DNA of 64,000 bases, taken from positions 4,769-68,768 of the forward strand of contig JAGVPT010000185.1 in assembly GCA_020052095.1 (NCBI GenBank), given 5' to 3'. The notes below the pieces were generated by a model, which was given only the letters and a program-made list of their open reading frames with translations, made no database searches and was not told the origin of the DNA. This stretch comes from Bacteroidota bacterium (lineage in GTDB: Bacteria; Bacteroidota; Ignavibacteria; UBA10030; UBA8401). The translations under genes and the position numbers were made by a program. Shown here in pieces: positions 24,306-61,638 of this stretch. The stretch's first letter is position 1; every line of letters starts with the position of its first letter.

Positions 24306-24473
24306 CTATGAAGAATCACCGATTTCATTGATTCTATTGAATAACAACCCGACGAAACCTATAATTCCGATCCCGAAAATAATCCTTGATTTTCGGGGAC
24401 GGTTTTGCTATTTTTGTTTCAGTTCAGACGCCCAAAGACACGGGCTTTTTTGGTTTGAGAGGAGTAAGATATT

Positions 24474-24815
24474 ATGTATTCGTTCCTGTTAGCAATTGAG
24501 ATCATTGTCAGTATTCTTCTAATAATAGTAATTCTGATGCAAAACAGTAAGGGGGGAGGTCTGGCAGGTTCTTTGGGAGGCGGAAATTTTGGGACAGTAT
24601 TTGGTGTGCGACGCACCGCAGATTTTCTGACACGTGCTACAACAATACTGGCAACAACGTTCATAGCCCTGGCTTTGATCATCAACATCTTCTACTTACC
24701 TGGAAAAGGTGCTTCATCCAAGGAAAGCGTGATCCAGAGCGGCCAGACAACTGTGCCGCCGGCACAATTGCCACCGCAAACTCAACCATCGCCCACAAAT
24801 TCGCCCCAAAAATAG
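24474..24815 (+). CDS. secG: Preprotein translocase subunit SecG
   Basis: Two TM helices with a Gly-rich loop QNSKGGGLAGSLGGGNFG; P/Q-rich C-terminal tail. Confidence 0.7.
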   Translation: MYSFLLAIEIIVSILLIIVILMQNSKGGGLAGSLGGGNFGTVFGVRRTADFLTRATTILATTFIALALIINIFYLPGKGASSKESVIQSGQTTVPPAQLPPQTQPSPTNSPQK

Positions 24816-24831
24816 GCCTTAGGTTGTCCAA

Positions 24832-24904
24832 GCACCCATGGCTCAATTGGTAGAGCAACTGACTCTTAATCAGTGGGTTCCAGGTTCGAGTCCTGGTGGG
24901 TGCA
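24832..24904 (+). tRNA. tRNA-Lys (anticodon CTT)
   Basis: Hand-folded cloverleaf. Acceptor gcaccca/tgggtgc, D stem gctc/gagc, anticodon stem actga/tcagt with loop cTCTTaa, T arm ccagg-ttcgagt-cctgg. 73 nt, CCA not encoded. Confidence 0.9.
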
Positions 24905-24913
24905 CAGAAAAAT

Positions 24914-24936
24914 GTCCGCAAAAGCGGACTTTTTTT
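24914..24936 (+). terminator. Intrinsic terminator after secG-tRNA-Lys
   Basis: GTCCGC-aaaa-GCGGAC hairpin followed by TTTTTTT. Confidence 0.6.
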
Positions 24937-25017
24937 ATAAATAGGCCGATAATTCACCCATCGACTAGTCTTTTTTGCCGGATTGACCGTTTTTCTCGCT
25001 AATTGGCTGTTTTCTTC

Positions 25018-25045
25018 TTGACAAATCTAAAAATTCTGTTATATT
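25018..25045 (+). promoter_or_regulatory. Candidate sigma70-type promoter for the 25184-30495 operon
   Basis: TTGACA (25018-25023), 16 nt, TATATT (25040-25045). Confidence 0.3.
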
Positions 25046-25183
25046 ACTGCCAATTACACGATAGTATGCAAGCAGTATTTAAGTTGTTTGCGGTAATTTC
25101 TTCTAGAACGTAATGCTGGTTTTTGGGATTGTGCCGCAGGGTATTCTAAAAACTCATACACTCACAATGCGCAGACAAACATT

Positions 25184-26308
25184 ATGCACTCCCGGTCCAA
25201 TTATCTTTTTGTAATTGGTTTCATCGTCATTTCCAGTGTTTTACTCCCCGTTGTAGCCGGAGCCCAGCAGCAACCCCAAGATCAAGCAGCACTCGCAACA
25301 AAAATTCCTGTTACGGAGAACTCCGCCCTTATCTCAATATTCCCAAAATTTGAAATAGCGGTCGATACTGCACTCGCATCAATGTCACAAGCAGCCCGGG
25401 AAGTCAGCCCTAGCATCAGAACCTTGTTGGTGTACAAATTGAAAGTGCGATGGCCGTTTAAGGAGGAATTGCGGTATTCGGAAATTCAGTTCCTCTCCAG
25501 CTACTTTGAACAGAAGTTGAAGAATGCTCTCACCCGCGATCGGAGATTTGCAGCAGTGGGGGCACAGGATCTAAAGACCCTTTCATTTAAAGCGACCGAC
25601 AGTTCTCTTCAAGTGAAGAATACGTACTCAGAAGATGAAATCCGCAACTATGCAAGAGCCCATAGTGTCGACGGCATTGTGTCTGCAGATGTTTTGATTT
25701 CTTCGAATCAGATCCTAATGTTTGTTAGCATCAATGATCTGAATGGTGTGACGGTATGGAGCAAGGAATTGAAAGCGGAATACCGGGTTCTCCCCACCGA
25801 TCCCGCAGCGGAACTTGCCAACCAATATGCGCTGAAAAGAAAAACCGGATTGATCGAAAATTATTTAACTGTTGGATTCCAACTTGGGACACCCTACAGG
25901 TTGGGTCAAAAAGATTCTGCGGGGAGTGTCGGCTTTTATTCGGTAGGATATCGCCTCAACGAAATGGCGACCATTTTGGATTTTCTCAAATTCTATATCG
26001 ATTCACGATTGATCGGCACCTCGAAACTTGGGCTTATGGGAATAATTGTACAGCCGGGATTTTCTTTCGAAATCATCGGCGATGAACAAATCGGTCCGGG
26101 GATATTAATGCTTGACCTTGGAGGTGGCTTCGACCTCTCGTTCAAGAATGGGGGAATTGCCGAATCCTACTACGGGGGATTATCGTTGCGTTTGAGCAGA
26201 AACGTCGGGATAACAGGATTCTATAACGGCATTGCAATCAAGGATAGCTTCGACAGTTATGACTTAGGTGGTCCGGTGTACGGAATGCAAGTGAACTTCG
26301 TTTTATAA
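25184..26308 (+). CDS. Secreted beta-rich protein (possible outer-membrane protein), unknown function; first gene of the MotAB/FliG-like operon
   Basis: Signal peptide followed by AQQQ. The C-terminal third has alternating hydrophobic beta-strand-like segments (GILMLDLGGGFDLSF, YGGLSLRLSRN, GMQVNFVL). Confidence 0.5.
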   Translation: MHSRSNYLFVIGFIVISSVLLPVVAGAQQQPQDQAALATKIPVTENSALISIFPKFEIAVDTALASMSQAAREVSPSIRTLLVYKLKVRWPFKEELRYSEIQFLSSYFEQKLKNALTRDRRFAAVGAQDLKTLSFKATDSSLQVKNTYSEDEIRNYARAHSVDGIVSADVLISSNQILMFVSINDLNGVTVWSKELKAEYRVLPTDPAAELANQYALKRKTGLIENYLTVGFQLGTPYRLGQKDSAGSVGFYSVGYRLNEMATILDFLKFYIDSRLIGTSKLGLMGIIVQPGFSFEIIGDEQIGPGILMLDLGGGFDLSFKNGGIAESYYGGLSLRLSRNVGITGFYNGIAIKDSFDSYDLGGPVYGMQVNFVL

Positions 26309-26327
26309 CAGAGATCAGGATTACACA

Positions 26328-27056
26328 ATGAATAGATTGTTAGGTATTCTGGTCGTTGGCGGGTTGATGTCAACGTACTGTTTATCGCAGGATAACGCGG
26401 CGGCGACAGACACAACCGTTCGATCGGAAGCAAAGCCCTCCAACACGCAACAACAGAAAGAAAGTTATCAGCAGAGAGAGAGTGGCACGCCATCGGCCCC
26501 GGCATCGGTGAAGTTGAATACGCCTACGCTTAACATGGACGTGTTGCTCGACCTCTACAACAAAGACATCGATTTTACGATTGACTATTCGGGTCAAGCC
26601 TTGAAGCAGCCCAGACAAGGTACGGCGGGAGAGGGTGAGGAGGGAAAACCTCAGACGGCTAAACAGAAGAAGCGGGCAGCAGAAGTGACCGAAGATCTGT
26701 TGAAACCGCGTGAAGAGGACCTTTCCACCGATATCCAAGATATTGTCGACACGTCAAGGGCAAGAAAGAAGCAAGCGAAGCAGGGGACCTATACAAAGGA
26801 GGACGCTGACTATAATAAAGCGCTCTTCAACCTTCAAGAAGCTCAGAAACTTTTCTCGGAACGGCGTTACCCGCAGGCTCTTGTGGAAATAAATAAGTCC
26901 GTCGATTCGGCCCCGAACATGGCGTTGGCTTATGCAGTGCGCGGATCCATTTATTATATGTTGAGGCAATTTCAAGAAGCGAAATCAAGTTGGGAAAAGG
27001 CGCTCGAGCTTGACCCATCAATGGACAATGTGAGAGCAATTCTCTATCGAATGTAA
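26328..27056 (+). CDS. Secreted TPR-repeat protein
   Basis: Signal peptide, a low-complexity Q/K-rich region, and C-terminal TPR-like helices (ALFNLQEAQKLFSERRYPQALVEINKSV...AYAVRGSIYYMLRQFQEAKSSWEKALELDP). Confidence 0.6.
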   Translation: MNRLLGILVVGGLMSTYCLSQDNAAATDTTVRSEAKPSNTQQQKESYQQRESGTPSAPASVKLNTPTLNMDVLLDLYNKDIDFTIDYSGQALKQPRQGTAGEGEEGKPQTAKQKKRAAEVTEDLLKPREEDLSTDIQDIVDTSRARKKQAKQGTYTKEDADYNKALFNLQEAQKLFSERRYPQALVEINKSVDSAPNMALAYAVRGSIYYMLRQFQEAKSSWEKALELDPSMDNVRAILYRM

Positions 27057-27074
27057 TTAATTGAAAGGTCCACA

Positions 27075-27923
27075 ATGAATTCAACCTTTATCGGATATAT
27101 TCTTTTCGGGATCGGTGCTTACATCCTCCTGATTATCGGTCAGGACACGGCGACGGTCGAGGCATTACAAAAAGGATATGTTCCAGAGTCCATGATCAAT
27201 TACATTCATATCCCGGGAATTATCTTTGTCGTTCTGGGAGTAAGCTCATCGATGCTCATCAGCTACAATTTCAGAGAGTTGATCGGAGCCGCTCGAGCCT
27301 TGTATTTCGTGTACATCAAGAACAAAATCAATTTTTCTATCTATCTGGACGCGATCAAGGATATCGCTCAGTACTCCAACACGCACGACATCGAATCGCT
27401 CGAGGAATATGCGAACCAAATCAAGTATCCATTCCTTCGAGACGGGGTTCTCATGCTCGTGAACGGCTATAAGAAGGAAGAGGTGAAGGAGATTCTCGTC
27501 TCACGCATTGAGAATGAAGCGCAACGAGAGCTGACCGATGTGAATATCTTTAAAGCTGCGGCACGCTACTCACCGGGCTATGGCATGTTGGGAACAACAG
27601 TCGGTTTGATCCAGATGTTTTCAACGAAGATCGATGCCGCTGCAGGATTTGGACCGATCCTGCAGGCTTTGGCGGTGGCCTTCACGACAACACTCTACGG
27701 ATTGTTACTTTCCAATTTTATTTTTGCACCATTCGCCGATAAGATCGAGAAACGGACGGACGAAGAGGCTCTCCTGAAGACCATGATCATCGAAGGATTA
27801 TGCCTCATAGTCGACAAGAAGCATCCTATATTCATCCAAGATAAATTAGGATCATATGTTCCCCAAAGCCGGGCACTGGCTGTTCCGGCGGTGACGCAAC
27901 TTTCGACTGAAGGCGGAGGCTAA
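27075..27923 (+). CDS. motA: MotA/PomA-family proton-channel stator protein
   Basis: 4-TM architecture with the MotA/TolQ/ExbB C-terminal signature GPILQALAVAFTTTLYGLLLSNFIFAPFADKIEKR. Confidence 0.8.
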   Translation: MNSTFIGYILFGIGAYILLIIGQDTATVEALQKGYVPESMINYIHIPGIIFVVLGVSSSMLISYNFRELIGAARALYFVYIKNKINFSIYLDAIKDIAQYSNTHDIESLEEYANQIKYPFLRDGVLMLVNGYKKEEVKEILVSRIENEAQRELTDVNIFKAAARYSPGYGMLGTTVGLIQMFSTKIDAAAGFGPILQALAVAFTTTLYGLLLSNFIFAPFADKIEKRTDEEALLKTMIIEGLCLIVDKKHPIFIQDKLGSYVPQSRALAVPAVTQLSTEGGG

Positions 27924-27928
27924 GAACA

Positions 27929-28597
27929 ATGAGGGCGCCACGACAAAAAAAGCAGGAAGAACAGCACTGGCAAGTAAGCTACATCGATTTGCTCACTGCA
28001 TTGCTTGCGACATTTACGCTGCTCCTCTCGTTGTCAGTTCCTGATCAATCCAAATTGGACAGTTTGGCGTCTTCAGTCTCGGAGGCCGCGAAACAACAAG
28101 CGAACCTGGGGAGTCTATCGAAGGAGTTGATGGCGACGATAGAAAAGAACGCTTCGCTCAAAGGGCAGATCAACGTCGTCATGACCGATGCAGGCATCGA
28201 ACTTCGCTTCGGAAGCAATTTGCTTTTCCCGCCGGGCAAAGCGGCATTGCGTGCGGAAGGCTATGACGCGATCTACAGCATCGGCAAAATACTCGGCTAT
28301 TTCGTCAAGGCGCGTAACGCGTTTATCGCCGTCGAGGGACATACGGACGACACACCCCTTAGGACAACGACTGAATTTCGCTCCAACTGGGAATTGTCCT
28401 CGACCCGGGCAACAGAGGTCGTTCACTATTTGCAGGATACTGTCATGATCGAGGGGAAGCGGCTTTCGAGCACCGGGTTTTCCGATGCACGCCCGCAAAC
28501 TAGGGAGAAAGACCCGGCAACAGGCCAATTTACGGATCGGGCGCGCAACGATAATCGGCGCGTGGTTATTCGGATCTACTACCATCGTGAGGTCTAG
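27929..28597 (+). CDS. motB: MotB-family stator protein with OmpA-like peptidoglycan-binding domain
   Basis: N-terminal WQVSYIDLLTALLATF TM/plug segment with the conserved Asp. C-terminal OmpA-like domain (IAVEGHTDDTP...NRRVVI). Confidence 0.8.
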   Translation: MRAPRQKKQEEQHWQVSYIDLLTALLATFTLLLSLSVPDQSKLDSLASSVSEAAKQQANLGSLSKELMATIEKNASLKGQINVVMTDAGIELRFGSNLLFPPGKAALRAEGYDAIYSIGKILGYFVKARNAFIAVEGHTDDTPLRTTTEFRSNWELSSTRATEVVHYLQDTVMIEGKRLSSTGFSDARPQTREKDPATGQFTDRARNDNRRVVIRIYYHREV

Positions 28598-28635
28598 CGG
28601 ATGAAATTGTTATCAAAAACATTCTCGGGAAAATT

Positions 28636-30495
28636 ATGAAAACTCGATTCGGAAGTGTGGTTCTTCTCCTTGTGGTAGTCTTTCAGGCACAGCTCTTTGC
28701 CGTGGACCTCGAACTCGAAAAGAAAAAGATGGAGCGGGATCTCGAAGATCGCACTTCCACGGAAATCCGCCGTTATTTTTCAGATCTTAATTTCCTTGTC
28801 ACTGCCGAAGTAACTCTTGTCGATTTAACTCCTCCTGTGAAGAAAGACAGAGGCGACAATAAGGATTTTCTCCTTCCCGGAGTTTCCGGTTTTCAGGCCG
28901 AGACTCAACGTTCGGAGGAATCGGCAAAACCTCAAATCGGTATTGAATCCATCGTCATCAAATTGTTGATTGACAAGAATAGGACGATGGAAGAAAAGGA
29001 CTTGCTCACAAACATCACGTTCTATACCGGCAAGCTCAATAAGGTTCGAGGAGACAGAGTTGATATCCAGGAAATGTCTTTTCCGGCAAGCACGCTGCAG
29101 GTCCAGCGGGAGCAACAGAGAGCAGAACAGGAAAAGCGCATTCAGGAACTGGAGAAGGCGAAACAGGATGCCGATCTCCGCGCGGCCCAACAACAAAAGG
29201 CCCAACCAGATCAGCTCACGCCGGCGAAACAACCTGAAAGTTTTCTGAGCCCCACAACAATGTTGTTATTGGGTCTTGGTCTGTTATTGCTGATTATTAT
29301 CGTCGTACTGCTGGCACGGGGAAGGAAGCAAAGTACCCCGGAAGCACAACAACCGCCGGCGCAGATGATGCCAGCGCAGCAGGGAATTCAGGGGGCGGAA
29401 GGCCAGGGGCAATCAGGTCTTCAGCAAGCCGTGATCGAACAGAATACAGAATTCCAAGAAGCGATGGAAGTCGATAAGGTGCGTCATAATCTCATTGCGA
29501 CATGCGCCGGCGAATCCGACTTAACGTCGAACGTCATCCGAGACATGATCGCGGATGCCACTCAGAAAGAACGACTCATGTTGGTGATATCGCAACTTGG
29601 GAATAGTCTTCTGCAGGTCATGAGAGACTATTTTTCCATCGACGAGATGAAAGTGCTTCAGGAGTTATCCCTTGAAAAGCAGGAAAAAACGCCGATGGAA
29701 ATCCGGGAGGCGCTCGCATCATTCCAGAACCAGCTTGCGATAAAGCGATTCTCCCAGGCCCGAAACACAAAGCAAAATCCATTTGCATTCCTTGAAAAAC
29801 TTTCGGAACCGCAGCTATATCTGTTAATGAAAGACGAACCGCCCGGAATCATTGCAATCATCTTGTCGCAGCTCAGTACGCCGATCGCAAGCTCTATGCT
29901 TAAGAACCTCCCGTCAATGCAGCAGGGAGAGGTCGCGTTGGAATTGGGCAAACTGCGTCGCCTGACCTCGGATACGTACGTTTCCGTCGCAAAGCAGCTC
30001 GCGGGGAAGGCAGCGACCATTCCGGTGATCAACAACGTTCAAGTGCAGGGGACTGATCTCTTGCTCGACATCTTTGACAATATTGACGAAACGGCAGAGT
30101 CGTCAATCATCGAATTCATTAAGGTGGTTAATCTTGATTTGTATCGGGAAATAACGAGTCAGCGCGTTTCCTTTAGTGCAATCAATCAGTTGGATGAAAG
30201 ACTTCTCCGTCAGATTGTGAAAGATATCTCTGGGGATGAGATGGCAATCGCTCTGAAGAATGCGCCGAAGGAAATCAGTGAACGCTTCTTCTCCGTCCTG
30301 CCGTCAAAGTCGAGAATTATTTTGGAAGACCGGCTGACATCTATGAAGAGCGTCTCTCCGGACGACGAATTGAAGGCACGCCGGCGAATTACACGAATGG
30401 TGCGGACGTATATGAAGTCTGGCGGCGCGTCTCTGGCCGCGGCCCCGGCAGCAGAGGGAACGGGAGAAGAGGCTAAGGAAGAGCAGCTTCAGTGA
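28636..30495 (+). CDS. Membrane-tethered FliG-like protein: signal-anchor plus about 200-aa periplasmic coiled-coil region plus TM helix plus complete FliG (N, M, C domains)
   Basis: Residues about 270-600 align by eye with E. coli FliG across its length. The middle domain has KDEPPGIIAIILSQL, corresponding to DEHPQIIATIL. The C-terminal torque-helix region is LLRQIVKDISGDEMAIALKNAPKEISERFFSVLPSKSRIILEDRL, corresponding to IQRLLQEVDSESLLIALKGAEQPLREKFLRNMSQRAADILRDDL. The N-terminus has a hydrophobic signal/anchor, a Q/E/K-rich coiled coil, and a second TM (TMLLLGLGLLLLIIIVVLL). Confidence 0.7.
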   Translation: MKTRFGSVVLLLVVVFQAQLFAVDLELEKKKMERDLEDRTSTEIRRYFSDLNFLVTAEVTLVDLTPPVKKDRGDNKDFLLPGVSGFQAETQRSEESAKPQIGIESIVIKLLIDKNRTMEEKDLLTNITFYTGKLNKVRGDRVDIQEMSFPASTLQVQREQQRAEQEKRIQELEKAKQDADLRAAQQQKAQPDQLTPAKQPESFLSPTTMLLLGLGLLLLIIIVVLLARGRKQSTPEAQQPPAQMMPAQQGIQGAEGQGQSGLQQAVIEQNTEFQEAMEVDKVRHNLIATCAGESDLTSNVIRDMIADATQKERLMLVISQLGNSLLQVMRDYFSIDEMKVLQELSLEKQEKTPMEIREALASFQNQLAIKRFSQARNTKQNPFAFLEKLSEPQLYLLMKDEPPGIIAIILSQLSTPIASSMLKNLPSMQQGEVALELGKLRRLTSDTYVSVAKQLAGKAATIPVINNVQVQGTDLLLDIFDNIDETAESSIIEFIKVVNLDLYREITSQRVSFSAINQLDERLLRQIVKDISGDEMAIALKNAPKEISERFFSVLPSKSRIILEDRLTSMKSVSPDDELKARRRITRMVRTYMKSGGASLAAAPAAEGTGEEAKEEQLQ

Positions 30496-30515
30496 TTCGT
30501 GTGCGTTATGTCTAC

Positions 30516-30556
30516 AAAGAAAGAGCACCTTGGGAAAGGTGCTCTTTCTTTTTCTA
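30516..30556 (+). terminator. Strong intrinsic terminator closing the MotAB/FliG-like operon
   Basis: 14-bp perfect stem AAAGAAAGAGCACC / GGTGCTCTTTCTTT with an 8-nt loop, followed by a T-run. Confidence 0.7.
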
Positions 30557-30592
30557 TGTGAAGTTATTTTCTCGTTTGTTCTGTTGAATAAG

Positions 30593-31639
30593 ATGAGTAT
30601 GGAAACAGTTGAGTCATATGTCGGGACGGAATTGCACCGATTAACGCTCCACCCCCGGTACGAAGAACTGGGCGTTCCATTCATGGAATACGATGGTTGG
30701 CTTTTGCCGCGTAAATTCCGGGACCTCGGTGAAGAAGTGGCGCTGCTCGAAGATGGAAGGGGGTACATCGATTTTTCTGACCACGGATTCCTTAGAATGG
30801 AGGGGAACGACGCAGTCGACTTACTTCATCGGATATCCACGAATGATTTTCGCAGCTTTAAAGAAGGCAGCGCTGTGCAAACAGTTCTGTTGAGTGAAAA
30901 AGGGCGGCTCGTCGATTCTATCGTCATCCTTCATCGGAACGATCATCTTCTGGTGATTACAAGCCGCGGTGCACATCAACACGTTGCGCAATGGATTGAG
31001 AAATTCATAATTATGGAGGATGTAAAACTGTCCAATGAGACGGGTCGTCATCTTCTTTTCTTCCATTGCACGCCACACCATGGACATCATGCCCCGGTAT
31101 CAAATGGAGCGAAGCTCTATACCTTCAGAACGAAGTATTTTGACCTTGACAGCACATTCTATATTGGCGAGGTTGCCTCATCGATTAGGGCCGTGGTCGA
31201 ATCCGCGGCACTGGTTCAAGTTGGAAACGAGGCCTATGAATTGTTCCGCATTCGCAAGGGGATCTCAGCGTACGGTAAGGAAATCATCGCTGAGTACAAT
31301 CCTCTTGAATTGGGTTTGAGGGGACAAATGAGCTTTGCAAAAGGATGTTACATCGGTCAAGAAGTAATAGCTCGACTTGATACCTACAAAAAAGTGCAGA
31401 AGAAATTATGCCGTGTTCATATTGATAAGATTCTCCCTTCGAACAGAGAATATCGGTTTTTTGCAGACGATAAGGAGGCAGGGAGTCTAACGAGCCACGT
31501 CCCGAACATCGGAGGAGAATCTGGTTCAATGGGACTTGCGATGGTGAAGAGTGTTTTCGCAAGCGCCGGAGCGCGATTTCTTCTTGACCGTCATGGTTCT
31601 GTTTTGACTATTGAAGACTTTGCTGAGAACGTACGGTAA
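30593..31639 (+). CDS. GcvT-like folate-binding protein (YgfZ/aminomethyltransferase family)
   Basis: GcvT-fold N-terminal domain (FSDHGFLRMEGNDAVDLLHRISTNDF) and C-terminal barrel. The start is set at the internal MSMETV; the listed ORF begins at 30530 inside the terminator hairpin. Confidence 0.65.
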   Translation: MSMETVESYVGTELHRLTLHPRYEELGVPFMEYDGWLLPRKFRDLGEEVALLEDGRGYIDFSDHGFLRMEGNDAVDLLHRISTNDFRSFKEGSAVQTVLLSEKGRLVDSIVILHRNDHLLVITSRGAHQHVAQWIEKFIIMEDVKLSNETGRHLLFFHCTPHHGHHAPVSNGAKLYTFRTKYFDLDSTFYIGEVASSIRAVVESAALVQVGNEAYELFRIRKGISAYGKEIIAEYNPLELGLRGQMSFAKGCYIGQEVIARLDTYKKVQKKLCRVHIDKILPSNREYRFFADDKEAGSLTSHVPNIGGESGSMGLAMVKSVFASAGARFLLDRHGSVLTIEDFAENVR

Positions 31640-33865: not shown

Positions 33866-34231
33866 GGGGGTGAATGGTTTCGACGAGGTCGAAGATGGTT
33901 GGACATAAGCATACCGTGCTCTCCGAGTTGCACGTAAATAAAGCGGAAACAATACAAGTGCAGACTACAACTACGCACTCGCTGCTTAATTAAACATTAA
34001 GTGGCGCATCTTCTTGAGACCCCGCCTGGCGGGTTTCTTGTAAGGTGTCGACTTCAGCCAGGCGTGCTAATATCCATGCTGGTGCGATATTGGCGAGAGC
34101 AAATCCCAGATAGCTTTGAGCATGGCGAGTTCATCCTGCCGGCTCCGGGCGAAATCGCACGAGATGAACTGAGTATGGAGAAGGTCTAATGGTCGTCACT
34201 TCGGACCGGGGTTCGAATCCCCGCACCTCCA
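33866..34231 (+). ncRNA. ssrA: tmRNA (ssrA), tag peptide ...ADYNYALAA
   Basis: 5' end GGGGGTGAATGGTTTCGACG (tRNA-like domain with the GGnTTCGACG box). 3' end GGACCGGGGTTCGAATCCCCGCACCTCCA pairs with the 5' acceptor (one G-U). Internal tag ORF gca-gac-tac-aac-tac-gca-ctc-gct-gct-TAA ends in YALAA*. Confidence 0.8.
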
Positions 34232-34265
34232 CGACGTTTTACGCCTCACCACTACTGCCATTCGA

Positions 34266-58113: not shown

Positions 58114-61100
58114 CTAGAAAAAGGCACGCACTTCCGCCCTGGCGGTATGAATCGGTGCGCGAAATTGTTCGGACCGCCCCATGTATTGCAGCGATGATTG
58201 AAGATTGCCGCTGAGGCGATAGTCAAACGTAACGCCCCAGAGGAAAGTTTTCCCGTCTCCTCTTCCGCCAGTGAGCTCAAACGGGATCAACAAACCCGCC
58301 GGCGCGTTTTCCAGTAGAATTTCCTCGCGAGAAAAATCTATGCGCACCTGACCTGCATTCCGGAACGAGACGGCCGTCCGGAGCGATTGGCTGTTGAAGT
58401 TCGCTGCTACCAGAGCGGACGGGTAGGCATCTTCAGACCTTGACACTTCGATTTTGAATCCGACTTCCACGTTTTGCTCGGGGCGGTACGAATAATCGGA
58501 ACTTAGACCATCGGACGCGATCATCCTTGAACGGGCGCTGTTCACCGATGCCCTAACGTTGTCTTGCTTGTTGATGTACTCAAGTTGGTTAGAAATCTCG
58601 GTGACCAATTGCAATCGGACTCGAATCGATCGCTCGCGAGAGTAGCTTTGCTCCAGCCCGGAGCTGTATTGTCCCAATCCTCTTCGTTGTTGATAACGGA
58701 AGCGAAATGAAAAATCGGACCTATTCTCAAAGAGAAAAATATCTTGCTGGAGAAGCTGGCTGCCGAGAATAGTTGTCGCCGGCTGAAGAAATCTGCTGAA
58801 ATCCAAAAGGTAGATTTTCCTTGTGTCAGTCTCTGAACTTTTCTCTTCGATACGGACATAACTTTCAGTTGAAACGACGGCGAGCGCTTTCTCCGACCAC
58901 GAGGATGGAGAATTAATAAATCGGGTTGGCGTGAATCGGAGCCGGATTGACGTCTTCAAGTCGATAACGGGATACAGCTCGTCACTGGGTATTGTGATGA
59001 CAATATAGTCGCCGTCAAACCTGCTGAGACGGAAATCTCTTTCATCAGCAACGTCGACCCTGCCGTTGCGAATGCCGTCTGTCCAGACGTATTGTCCGTC
59101 TCCCTTCCGGACTTGGTAGAATATTCTTTCGAGCTTGGCAGAGCGTTGGGTTGAAACCTCATAGAAGACGTCGGCGTCGATACTTCGCCGGAGGGGCGCG
59201 TAGCGCGATTGAGATCGAAGCAAAATCGTCTGAACGTCGCCGTTTGTGAGTCGAAACGTACCATTGTACATTTTTTCCCGAAGAATAACGTTTGCCCCGG
59301 ATGAAAAATTCGCGATCTCAGGGAGCGACCAATTATACGCTTGCGTCAAGGAGCGAGATTGCGGATGAAGTCTCCCCTCGATGGGCGCTCTGTCGTCTCG
59401 CATCTCAAATTCGGCGGAGACATTCATACTATAAATCCCCGTTGCAGAGACTTTCGGTGCGACGGTCGTAAAGCCGAAACTCGCAGGGTTCAACGAATCG
59501 GTTGCTCCAGTTTCAAGCGTTCTTTTTTCAGTTTCAAAACGAAAGCTCGGCGTGATTGTGCTTAGGGTGTAGGAAATCGTACCTCTTTGCCGTAGCCAGA
59601 CATTCTTCCCGACAGATGCCTTTTGCGAGCTGGTGATCTGCTCAATAGTGTAGTCGCCATTGGGGAGTGAATCGGCATTCATTTGAATGAATGCGTCTAT
59701 TCTGTCTGCAGAGAATTGATTTCCCCGTCTATTACTCCCAAGCGAGCCCCCGATGGAAACAGTCTGCAGTGGATTGTACGCCATGCGAGCTTCACGAATC
59801 TCTTCCGATGCGGGCTGCACGGTCACCGTGCTGTCCAAACTCCACTTCCTCCCGAACTCCACGTCGTCGGAGCGGTCAATGGAAATAAAATTCTTGTTCA
59901 CATATCTGTCGGACAGCGAAAAATCGAATGAACCGATGTCGTTCCCGCCTATTTTCACGTTTGCAGGAGTATAATGGGCCAATAATTTCATTGCCCCGCC
60001 AGTTTTATCGTCGCCGACTGAAAACCTATTTGCATTGTAACTGCTCCCGGCATATTCGCCTGCTATCGAAAAATTCTTCATAACTTGGATAGTTGTCTTC
60101 ACATCCGCTAGCTGCTGAAGTTGCGGGGAGGGCAAGATCACAATCGGTAAATATTGTCCATTGTGAGATCCCACGTAACGGTAGCGCCCCAAAGACTCTC
60201 GAATATAGTCACCCTGCCCTCCTCCGACAAAAGAGAACGCGACGTTAAACTGCGCTTCGGGTGTTCCAGGTGAGAATCTGTACAACCTGACATTCGCTCC
60301 TTGCAGTGCGGTATCTACAGCAATATACTGCCCTTTTCCGAGGTTCGAAGAATCGACACCAACCGAGTCTACCCCAGATTTTGTCGCCGTAGTGCTCCCA
60401 CTTTGTTGTAAAATTTTCTTGTCACTGTCGCTCAAAGATAGATCAATTGGAGCGTTGGGATCGTCTCCCTCCCTCGCGTAGACGATGGAAAGTTTCACGT
60501 CGTCGTGAATCGTCTGAGACATAGTTTGCGCAGCGAAGAAGTTTCTCGTGTAGGCGCGGTCTGTGTATTGAAAGTCCACCACAATGCGTGAAGCACTCGT
60601 AATTAACCTCTTGGAGGAAAAGACTATTTCAGAGCTGGCATAATCAATCGCGTAATCGTTAGTTTCGCCCCTTAACATTAAGTTGCCATCGACGTAAACT
60701 TTCTCTGTTCCGGCGATGACTATGATATTGCGCTCATTGTTCTTTCCGAACAAGCGATAGGGCCCTTGCACTCCTTCAATCCCTGCAAATTGATTTATAT
60801 TGAACTTTCCCCTCGAGGTCGCACCGATCACCGTCCCTGAGTTGGAAATGGCCCCTGTCGAATAATATGCGGTCCCCTTTGCTCCTTGTAGCTTTCGACT
60901 CAAGCGCCCAAAGTCACTCCCCACAAGATCGATGTAGAAATCTCCTAGGGTCGCTTCGTAATTAGTGCTTTTTACTTCCACAAACACTTTGTCCAGTTCT
61001 TGTAGGGTCTGTGTGTTTCCCTCCGGCTGTATGGGCGTATTCTCATCTGTGAGAGCGGCAAGAATCTCAACGTCGGAAGAGAGTTTTCCTGCAAATTGAA

Positions 61101-61638
61101 GTCGAAAACCAGAATTGAGAGTCAAATCTCTGTTGGAGCCGACACTGAATCCTCTAAAAATGCTGCCACTTTTTTGAAGTTCATTTCCGAAGATATCACT
61201 GAGCGGAGACACATTCGTTGTCACGATTGTGGCGCGATGATTAATGCTGTCTCGACGGACAGTATAGTTTTTATGCCAATAAGGAGATTGAAATGAAAAC
61301 GGTAAGAAATTGTATTGTAGGTAGATATTGACTTCTCTGTCTTTAAAATCTATGTCTCTTTTCAGATTTATGGTAACCCTCCCAGTGGAATTTTCGATGA
61401 CATAGTCCACCCCTCGATTGAGCTTTAAGGAGTCGAGATGCAGAGATTCCGAATTTGGAATTATGAGATCGTGGGAGAGCTGGATCGAAGTATCGGGTCT
61501 AGAGATGCGGAAATGGTCGAATGTTTGGGTGATTTGCTGGAGAGGTTGAGCGTAAGCTGCTCCCAAGCGGAAGGCAAAGATGAGAGCTAGTAAGAATAGG
61601 GTAGTACGTATGTCGGAAGTCGGTCTCAAGGAAGACAA
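58114..61638 (-). CDS. Large (1174 aa) secreted, beta-rich, outer-membrane-like protein of unknown function
   Basis: N-terminal signal peptide (LFLLALIFAFRLGAAYAQ). Pervasive alternating-residue beta-strand patterns, many Tyr/Gly/Ser/Asn, and a C-terminus ...AEVRAFF with terminal aromatic residues, typical of OM beta-barrels. Confidence 0.6.
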   Translation of the reverse strand: MSSLRPTSDIRTTLFLLALIFAFRLGAAYAQPLQQITQTFDHFRISRPDTSIQLSHDLIIPNSESLHLDSLKLNRGVDYVIENSTGRVTINLKRDIDFKDREVNIYLQYNFLPFSFQSPYWHKNYTVRRDSINHRATIVTTNVSPLSDIFGNELQKSGSIFRGFSVGSNRDLTLNSGFRLQFAGKLSSDVEILAALTDENTPIQPEGNTQTLQELDKVFVEVKSTNYEATLGDFYIDLVGSDFGRLSRKLQGAKGTAYYSTGAISNSGTVIGATSRGKFNINQFAGIEGVQGPYRLFGKNNERNIIVIAGTEKVYVDGNLMLRGETNDYAIDYASSEIVFSSKRLITSASRIVVDFQYTDRAYTRNFFAAQTMSQTIHDDVKLSIVYAREGDDPNAPIDLSLSDSDKKILQQSGSTTATKSGVDSVGVDSSNLGKGQYIAVDTALQGANVRLYRFSPGTPEAQFNVAFSFVGGGQGDYIRESLGRYRYVGSHNGQYLPIVILPSPQLQQLADVKTTIQVMKNFSIAGEYAGSSYNANRFSVGDDKTGGAMKLLAHYTPANVKIGGNDIGSFDFSLSDRYVNKNFISIDRSDDVEFGRKWSLDSTVTVQPASEEIREARMAYNPLQTVSIGGSLGSNRRGNQFSADRIDAFIQMNADSLPNGDYTIEQITSSQKASVGKNVWLRQRGTISYTLSTITPSFRFETEKRTLETGATDSLNPASFGFTTVAPKVSATGIYSMNVSAEFEMRDDRAPIEGRLHPQSRSLTQAYNWSLPEIANFSSGANVILREKMYNGTFRLTNGDVQTILLRSQSRYAPLRRSIDADVFYEVSTQRSAKLERIFYQVRKGDGQYVWTDGIRNGRVDVADERDFRLSRFDGDYIVITIPSDELYPVIDLKTSIRLRFTPTRFINSPSSWSEKALAVVSTESYVRIEEKSSETDTRKIYLLDFSRFLQPATTILGSQLLQQDIFLFENRSDFSFRFRYQQRRGLGQYSSGLEQSYSRERSIRVRLQLVTEISNQLEYINKQDNVRASVNSARSRMIASDGLSSDYSYRPEQNVEVGFKIEVSRSEDAYPSALVAANFNSQSLRTAVSFRNAGQVRIDFSREEILLENAPAGLLIPFELTGGRGDGKTFLWGVTFDYRLSGNLQSSLQYMGRSEQFRAPIHTARAEVRAFF

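Follow-up and report, generated by a model that had tools for sequence, protein, structure and literature searches.

A 64,000-nucleotide (nt) stretch from a Bacteroidota bacterium (contig JAGVPT010000185.1, positions 4,769 to 68,768; "the window" below means this whole stretch) carries a five-gene operon whose products point to a self-contained, ion-driven rotor/stator machine. We consider it moderately probable that this machine derives from, or shares ancestry with, the flagellar motor and that it works without a flagellum. Its predicted parts are a flagellar-type MotA/MotB stator (genes 3 and 4), a single protein joining the C-terminal half of FliF to FliG (gene 5), and two envelope proteins, a putative outer-membrane beta-barrel protein (gene 1) and a secreted tetratricopeptide-repeat (TPR) protein (gene 2). 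What is new here is the occurrence of flagellar-type rotor and stator parts in a minimal, flagellum-free module with new envelope partners. By flagellum-free, we mean that no other flagellar genes lie in the 64-kb window or in the sampled flanks of related loci.

To our knowledge, FliG and MotAB of the flagellar type have until now been regarded as belonging to the flagellum only, and one recent survey placed all stators of the plug-and-OmpA type in one "flagellar" clade (PMC12505986). If the proposed machine exists, the flagellar rotor/stator pair would be able to act as an independent engine, and the operon, with its single rotor gene and lack of a switch complex, would provide a naturally minimal model in which to study how rings assemble and torque arises. 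Competing models of flagellar origin, in which either the motor or the secretion system came first, could be tested on a concrete case, and an energized envelope system would be added to those of poorly known soil and freshwater bacteria.

Rotor, stator, and envelope proteins of the operon

The five open reading frames (ORFs) lie on the + strand at 25184-30495 and are separated by successive gaps of 19, 18, 5, and 38 nt, as a first reading made from the sequence alone (the sequence-only reading) had described them. Profile and fold matches identify gene 5 as one polypeptide collinear with FliF residues ~250-560, comprising the third ring-building motif (RBM3) or S-ring region, the transmembrane (TM) helix, and the tail, followed by apparently full-length FliG. 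The sequence-only reading had recognized a FliG domain with its own membrane anchor and periplasmic region; both were confirmed, but it had missed that the anchor and periplasmic region together correspond to the C-terminal half of FliF. The FliG similarity passed profile and fold searches alike. Pfam matched FliG_M (1.5e-12) and FliG_C (1e-18), and a family profile of 43 homologues found Thermotoga maritima FliG-MC (PDB ID code 1lkv, 7e-25). When the AlphaFold2 (AF2) model of gene 5 was compared with the PDB using Foldseek, ranks 1-13 were FliG structures, including full-length FliG over ~325 columns with the N, M, and C domains covered, and ranks 14-33 were FliF RBM3, S-ring, or collar structures (E 4e-3 to 3e-2, ~150 columns).

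A larger profile, built from 74 family sequences, matched Salmonella FliF 344-559 (4.3e-7), Vibrio FliF 250-578 (1.1e-6), an RBM3-only FliF chain (2.8e-4), the FliG_N chain 5tdy_B (5.6e-4), and two stretches of an engineered fusion (PDB chain 8z4d_1). Among these 74 relatives, Pfam recognized YscJ_FliF_C in 24 and FliG_N, the FliF tail-binding domain, in 61; the FliG_N score of the window's gene 5 by itself was below significance. The AF2 model has an N-terminal hydrophobic helix followed by an alpha-beta-beta-alpha-beta unit at residues (aa) 25-146 and, in its distal part, a single TM helix, a Q/P-rich linker, and an all-helical region at aa 261-594. The periplasmic part thus modeled spans ~180 aa and holds one RBM-like unit, and the FliF alignments begin at about residue 250. 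RBM1 and RBM2 of FliF, the SctJ-like domains, were not found in gene 5; there was no YscJ_FliF (PF01514) match in the window protein or in any of the 74 relatives. The periplasmic LPG and RGD motifs are nearly invariant throughout the gene 5 superfamily, and a long conserved loop (aa 64-100) was modeled with low confidence.

K558 of the gene 5 torque helix, aligned to Escherichia coli FliG R281, is invariant in the core family (delimited in the next section) and is R or K in 68 of the 74 relatives. Position 565 (the D288 equivalent) is acidic (D or E) within the core family but varies across the wider set. The FliM-binding EHPQR motif is altered to E401-P-P-G404...E436, with E401, G404, and E436 invariant in the core family. 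Against the FliG equivalog TIGR00207, gene 5 scored 92.3 bits, under the cut-off of 226.7, and no match of any of the five operon proteins reaches the curated NCBIfam equivalog cut-offs for canonical flagellar proteins. Because the FliM-binding motif is lost and the protein has its own FliF-derived ring domain, gene 5 is unlikely to be the fliG of a canonical flagellum. Its identity as an ordinary fliG of a flagellar regulon is likewise disfavored, because the protein lacks RBM1, RBM2, and an EHPQR motif.

Genes 3 and 4 are identified by their domain and profile matches as a flagellar-type MotA/MotB stator, in agreement with the sequence-only reading, with the channel Asp, plug, prolines, and OmpA anchor all intact. 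Gene 3 (Pfam MotA_ExbB, 3e-20) spans the membrane with four TM helices, and its cytoplasmic torque domain resembles that of PomA. Its best NCBIfam models were MotP (1e-42) and PomA (2e-37), with scores beneath the equivalog cut-offs (145.9 vs. 394 and 128.9 vs. 341, respectively). All 10 of its PDB matches were flagellar A subunits, namely PomA (1e-25) and MotA of Paenibacillus, Clostridium, Bacillus, Aquifex, and Campylobacter, and no ExbB or TolQ chain was among them. The TM3 and TM4 prolines are conserved, and the equivalents of PomA E96/E97 are an invariant EE or ED in the core family; in three distant operons, the prolines are kept and the first (E96) position holds E, D, and E. The core-family MotA proteins also have a periplasmic loop between TM1 and TM2 (aa 25-45) that is ~13-17 residues longer than that of PomA, the insertion being conserved with the consensus "...A.V..LQ...".

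The gene 4 product combines a plug and an OmpA-like domain that has the usual motifs for binding peptidoglycan (Pfam MotB_plug, 3.5e-10; OmpA, 3.3e-15) with a TM helix bearing the channel Asp, D20 (nt 27986-27988, "SYIDLLTA"). NCBIfam matches were to MotD, MotS, and MotB (MotD, 126.9 vs. a cut-off of 283), and the PDB matches were MotB and PomB. Neither the core family nor the three distant operons show any substitution of the channel Asp. A plug, an OmpA-type B subunit, and a large torque interface are the marks of the flagellar branch of the stator superfamily (PMC12505986).

The two upstream genes encode envelope proteins. Gene 1 had no Pfam match and no PDB match by sequence search. The structure model, built from 24 homologues, supports the earlier suggestion of a beta-barrel: a signal peptide (aa 1-27) is followed by a periplasmic alpha/beta domain (aa ~49-200, nt 25328-25783), LpoB/TolB-N-like in fold, and by eight long beta strands that form a C-terminal barrel (aa 225-373, nt 25856-26302). 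Gene 1 is accordingly predicted to be an outer-membrane beta-barrel with an LpoB/TolB-N-like periplasmic domain; lower-scoring matches of the model were soluble barrels. Within the periplasmic domain, the segment KATDSSLQVKNT (aa 136-147) is highly conserved, flexible, and modeled with low confidence. A Pfam scan of the 24 homologues gave faint FlgT_M matches only, in two of them. The TolB-N-like fold is common to FlgT_M and LpoB. Gene 2 is secreted and, as had been proposed, contains TPRs (TPR_2, 3.6e-09; TPR_1, 1.6e-08), located C-terminally at aa ~156-238 (nt 26793-27041) beyond variable low-complexity linkers. Its family alignment revealed a conserved 34-residue motif, SAPASVKLNTPTLNMDVLLDLYNKDIDFTIDYSG, at aa 56-89 (nt 26493-26594).

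Conservation and distribution of the module

We found that the five genes form one conserved module whose members are obligately associated across distant lineages. The core family of gene 5 comprises 57 database clusters at 90% identity, all metagenomic or from metagenome-assembled genomes (MAGs) labeled Bacteroidota/Ignavibacteria, and is present in 20 species-level MAG genomes. In each of these 20 genomic loci that has enough flank, the five genes are adjacent and in the same order, at identities down to 36-42%; because this adjacency holds in all related loci with enough flank, the arrangement is not due to chance. Three chromosomal contexts occur within the core family, and the five-gene block is their sole common part. 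The nearest relatives share housekeeping flanks syntenic with the window. The second context has murC-ftsQ-ftsA-ftsZ upstream and DUF4159-DUF4175 downstream, and the third has a giant ORF upstream and a MerR regulator with PAS histidine kinases downstream. At L011 1569-6294 and the equivalent positions of L012, L013, L014, and L020, the operon lies just 3' of murC-ftsQ-ftsA-ftsZ on the same strand, after a gap of ~158 nt. This adjacency, found in one clade that is not the window's, may hint at a link with cell division or the envelope.

Comparison of the window with the related locus L001 gave identities of 77, 69, 86, 85, and 77% for genes 1-5 and of 74, 66, 57, and 44% for the flanking genes PurL, AccC, DapF, and YgfZ. 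These values indicate that the five genes are under purifying selection and are conserved as much as, or more than, adjacent housekeeping genes.

An exhaustive HMMER search of 1.84 billion representatives returned 113 proteins at E<=1e-30. The majority are 580-720 aa long and match the profile over nearly its full length, and the fusion architecture occurs in >100 clusters at 50% identity. The distant sequences sampled keep the same layout of signal peptide, RBM-like unit with LPG and RGD, TM helix, and FliG. The few named distant carriers are MAGs labeled Pseudomonadota, "Deltaproteobacteria bacterium TL4," or simply "bacterium," and public annotation of the proteins reads "FliG," "FliG C-terminal domain-containing protein," and "MotA."

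We examined the neighborhoods of six members of the distant set (~20% identity), and all lie in the same kind of operon. Four complete operons (five loci) hold all five components, in the order fusion-X-TPR-MotA-MotB or X-TPR-fusion-MotA-MotB; two more loci follow the first order and are cut at the MotA position. X is homologous to gene 1 in two distant operons (hhalign probability 93-95%). Most distant operons include a TPR gene, and in one of the four complete ones, the gene at that position has no Pfam match. One distant-operon MotA is split into ORFs of 142 and 137 aa (L023 10000-10783), which reflects a frameshift, an assembly error, or a pseudogene. In the distant clade, a gene transcribed divergently from the fusion gene and encoding a 567-611 aa protein with a faint MORN_2 match lies immediately 5' of it at L022 8113-9816 (- strand), at L026 513-2216 (- strand), and at the P0281 locus; it could be an additional, clade-specific component.

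The absence of other flagellar genes nearby, noted already in the sequence-only reading, held throughout the material sampled. Pfam detected no flagellar, chemotaxis, or type III secretion domains in the other window ORFs of >=100 aa and no flagellar genes among the Pfam-annotated flank genes of the other core contexts and the distant loci. The five genes were thus seen together in at least six genomic neighborhoods and three gene orders without flagellar neighbors, which strengthens the original proposal of a self-contained module.

A proposed machine and its alternatives

In the machine that we propose, the RBM3-like domains of gene 5 would oligomerize into an S-ring-like ring in the inner membrane, as in FliF, and ring formation would set a circle of FliG torque helices beneath the membrane. 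The MotA5B2 units, held to peptidoglycan by MotB, would turn with ion flow, and the invariant acidic pair of MotA would push on the basic K558, so that the ring rotates. Because the FliM/FliN-binding motif is absent, rotation would be expected to be unidirectional, with no switching and no chemotaxis control. The TPR and barrel proteins would make up the periplasmic part, either as a stator scaffold (as MotX/MotY, FlgT, and PflA/PflB) or as a coupling of the ring to the outer membrane. That the three periplasmic partners fold together is suggested because each has a conserved segment that is disordered in the monomer models; the segments of genes 1 and 2 may cofold with the LPG loop of the ring, itself conserved. 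The output would most likely be a process of the outer membrane or cell surface, such as surface movement or envelope maintenance.

In the most far-reaching version of this reading, the operon would encode a free-standing, flagellum-independent rotary engine, in which MotAB spins a FliF(RBM3)-FliG ring and two dedicated proteins connect that ring to the outer membrane, and it would represent a new class of envelope machine. We put this version forward tentatively, at somewhat below even probability. Its carriers would be widespread, in uncultured Bacteroidota/Ignavibacteria-like lineages and in MAGs labeled Pseudomonadota and Deltaproteobacteria, and it would be either a minimal flagellar motor put to new use or a relative that survives from the pre-flagellar rotor/stator core. 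In both cases, it would have a direct bearing on the evolution of the flagellar motor. There is a substantial chance that the machine is categorically new.

Several observations weigh against the proposed machine. The positions of PomA R88/K89 hold N, Q, or S and then T or K in gene 3, and are not basic; a basic residue in this family is shifted 1-2 positions past them. On the rotor side, position 566 of gene 5 (the E. coli D289 equivalent) is basic in the core family. Because the D289 equivalent is basic and the R88/K89 positions are not, the canonical rotor-stator charge pairing appears to be kept only partly. A 16-sequence profile of the N-terminal part of gene 5 did not recover FliF from the PDB, so the FliF assignment rests on the larger profile and the fold match; the Foldseek E-values against FliF are modest. 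The AF2 models are only moderately confident, with predicted local distance difference test (pLDDT) values of 67 for gene 5 and 71 for gene 1. No output component (rod, adhesin, or substrate) was identifiable in the operon sequence. Finally, the carriers are all uncultured MAGs.

The comparison with known systems bears on how new the machine would be. Our full-text literature search, which also covered FliG paralogues, natural FliF-FliG fusions, and flagella in Ignavibacteria MAGs, found no description of such a FliG/MotAB module, which agrees with the earlier judgment that this is not a described system; its sole finds were the Chlamydia fusion and the engineered ones. The operon shares with the flagellar FliF/FliG and MotAB/PomAB motor a homologous RBM3/S-ring region, the TM helix, the M and C domains of FliG including the torque helix, a probable FliG N domain, a homologous stator with plug, channel Asp, and OmpA-like anchor, and presumably the same electrostatic drive. 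In contrast to that motor, it has FliF and FliG in a single chain, without RBM1/RBM2 and with EHPQR changed; it is unaccompanied by genes for FliM/FliN, the export apparatus, rod, hook, or filament; and its fixed partners are outer-membrane barrel/LpoB-like and TPR proteins. In the complex flagellar motors, periplasmic TPR/Sel1-type proteins and outer-membrane-associated TolB-N-like proteins surround the rotor and hold the stators. The likeness of genes 1 and 2 to these scaffolds (Vibrio MotX/MotY and FlgT/FlgO/FlgP; Campylobacter PflA/PflB) is one of fold class and logic only, seen in the FlgT_M matches and the LpoB-like fold of gene 1 and its relatives; no significant sequence homology was found to any of them.

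The nearest natural precedent is the FliF-FliG fusion of Chlamydiaceae, in which a shortened FliF is joined to FliG in bacteria regarded as nonflagellated (Bergeron 2016, PMC4768692). The chlamydial protein (~330 aa) contains RBM2, one further RBM, and the M domain of FliG, with no torque C domain; the only flagellar genes listed are FliF, FliL, and FlhA, and a link to the injectisome has been proposed (PMC4768692). Gene 5 differs in retaining the RBM3-like domain and apparently full FliG and in being paired with MotAB. Engineered FliF-FliG fusions form rings and support rotation (PMC4768692, citing Francis 1992 and Thomas 2001; PMC10941966; PMC11481574). In the Salmonella and Vibrio constructs, as proposed for gene 5, a covalent chain assembles MS/S-rings, and the Salmonella fusion still rotates (PMC10941966, PMC11481574, PMC6079021); however, these are laboratory proteins with full-length FliF inside a complete flagellum.

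Tol-Pal, ExbBD-TonB, GldLM/PorLM, AglRQS-Glt, and Zorya also combine an ion-driven motor of the MotA/ExbB family with envelope partners, and Agl-Glt and Tol-Pal likewise include TPR proteins and outer-membrane barrel or outer-membrane-anchored partners. These nonflagellar 5:2 motors belong to a generic branch without the plug and OmpA-type B subunit (PMC12505986). Their partner helix lies inside or beside the motor, and none of them uses FliG. We found no Pfam match to GldL, GldM, TonB_C, or TolA in the five operon proteins.

There is a nonrotary alternative, which we regard as unlikely. In it, MotAB would energize conformational work on the FliF-FliG protein in the style of Tol-Pal or TonB, with no need for a ring, and FliF-FliG would contact the outer-membrane barrel through the TPR protein and so tether or remodel the envelope, for example at cell division. 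The parts list does parallel TolQ-TolR-TolA-TolB-Pal-CpoB (a 5:2 motor and a TPR protein, with one partner anchored in the inner membrane and another, TolB-N/LpoB-like in fold, in the outer membrane), one clade has the operon directly after murC-ftsQ-ftsA-ftsZ, and no axial or output component is encoded. However, the fts link is limited to that clade, contact with the stator would be made by the cytoplasmic FliG torque domain rather than by a TM helix within the motor as in TolA or TonB, and the RBM3 homology is to a ring-building domain and favors a ring. With its plug and OmpA domain, the stator also belongs with the flagellar stators and not with TolQR/ExbBD (PMC12505986).

Less probable again is that the operon is an accessory or alternative rotor-stator set for a conventional flagellum encoded elsewhere, either a lineage-specific variant or a conditional second motor. 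Every recognizable domain is flagellar, databases already give the proteins flagellar names, and the absence of flagellar genes is established only for the window and sampled flanks. Cultured Ignavibacteria (Ignavibacterium, Melioribacter) carry flagellar genes. Against this stand the loss of RBM1 and RBM2, which in the MS-ring are required to house the export gate, and the replacement of EHPQR by E-P-P-G...E. No flagellar gene accompanies the operon in the window or among the Pfam-annotated genes of the other sampled flanks, and its constant partners, the barrel and TPR proteins, are nonflagellar.

A role in anti-phage defense, as a Zorya-like or other system built on a MotAB-type motor, is very improbable. 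Zorya does provide a precedent for MotAB homologues outside motility, and gene 4 matches ZorB models (7e-23), but that match reflects general MotB homology. There is no ZorA match and no long ZorA tail, the MotA protein having just 282 aa; PADLOC found no ZorC, ZorD, or ZorE and was negative save for the generic MotB similarity, which led us to reject a Zorya identity; no nuclease or helicase gene is present; and the operon occupies a stable chromosomal position between syntenic housekeeping flanks, with no island features. The least credible reading, a functionless, decaying relic of a lost flagellum of which only a reduced set of flagellar-derived core parts is left, is rejected on the conservation between the window and L001, with intact reading frames, proteins conserved at or above the level of neighboring housekeeping genes, invariant functional residues, and retention of the module through deep divergence and changes of gene order.

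Operon signals and surroundings

Features of the operon and domains of gene 5 are collected in Table 1. The promoter-like site matches 11 of 12 consensus positions and is the top one of 9 sites in the region, where shuffled sequences gave 6.2 expected; the sequence-only reading had placed a sigma70-like promoter at 25018, and the match begins there. It had also described a terminator with a perfect 14-bp stem at 30516: the hairpin is present at that position, but its stem is 16 bp.

Table 1. Coordinates of the operon features and of the regions of the gene 5 protein
Feature	Position (nt)	Strand	Residues (aa)	Description
Promoter-like site	25018-25045	+		sigma70-like, TTGACA-16-(TG)TATATT; 139 nt 5' of gene 1; consensus match only
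Gene 1	25184-26308	+		374 aa; predicted outer-membrane barrel plus periplasmic domain
Gene 2	26328-27056	+		242 aa; secreted TPR protein
Gene 3	27075-27923	+		282 aa; MotA/PomA-type stator A subunit
Gene 4	27929-28597	+		222 aa; MotB-type stator B subunit
Gene 5	28636-30495	+		619 aa; putative FliF(C-half)-FliG natural fusion
Gene 5, signal peptide or N-terminal anchor			1-23	
Gene 5, FliF RBM3/S-ring-like domain	28705-29085		24-150	conserved LPG (80-82) and RGD (138-140)
Gene 5, long helix			152-186	
Gene 5, TM helix	29251-29322		206-229	Q/P-rich linker after it
Gene 5, FliG_N-like domain	29416-29766		261-377	
Gene 5, FliG_M	29785-30018		384-461	
Gene 5, FliG_C	30037-30417		468-594	includes the torque helix
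Terminator-like hairpin	30516-30551	+		16-bp perfect stem, GGGA loop, T-rich tail; 20 nt past the gene 5 stop

A tRNA-Lys(CTT) gene (24832-24905, + strand) lies immediately 5' of the operon promoter, and secG is also upstream. Apart from this tRNA, no leader riboswitch or other Rfam element scored over threshold in 24400-31000, the rest being sub-threshold chance matches. Downstream is a ygfZ/GcvT-like ORF (30530-31639, + strand) whose listed TTG start falls within the terminator hairpin of the operon, so that translation more plausibly starts at the ATG at 30593. A tmRNA gene (33866-34232, + strand; tag peptide ADYNYALAA) follows 3.4 kb past the operon.

The other window ORFs of >=100 aa are housekeeping only by Pfam, including the bc complex, caa3 oxidase, PurL, MutS2, IF-2, NusA, and PNPase, and covering nucleotide and cell-wall metabolism and translation factors, together with one 1174-aa ORF without a Pfam match (58114-61638, - strand). 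The product of this ORF has a signal-peptide-like N-terminus and a C-terminus (...RAEVRAFF) that resembles an outer-membrane beta-signal, and the gene is kept beside rimP-nusA in the related loci L007, L009, and L010 at 31-33% identity. It probably encodes a large uncharacterized outer-membrane protein.

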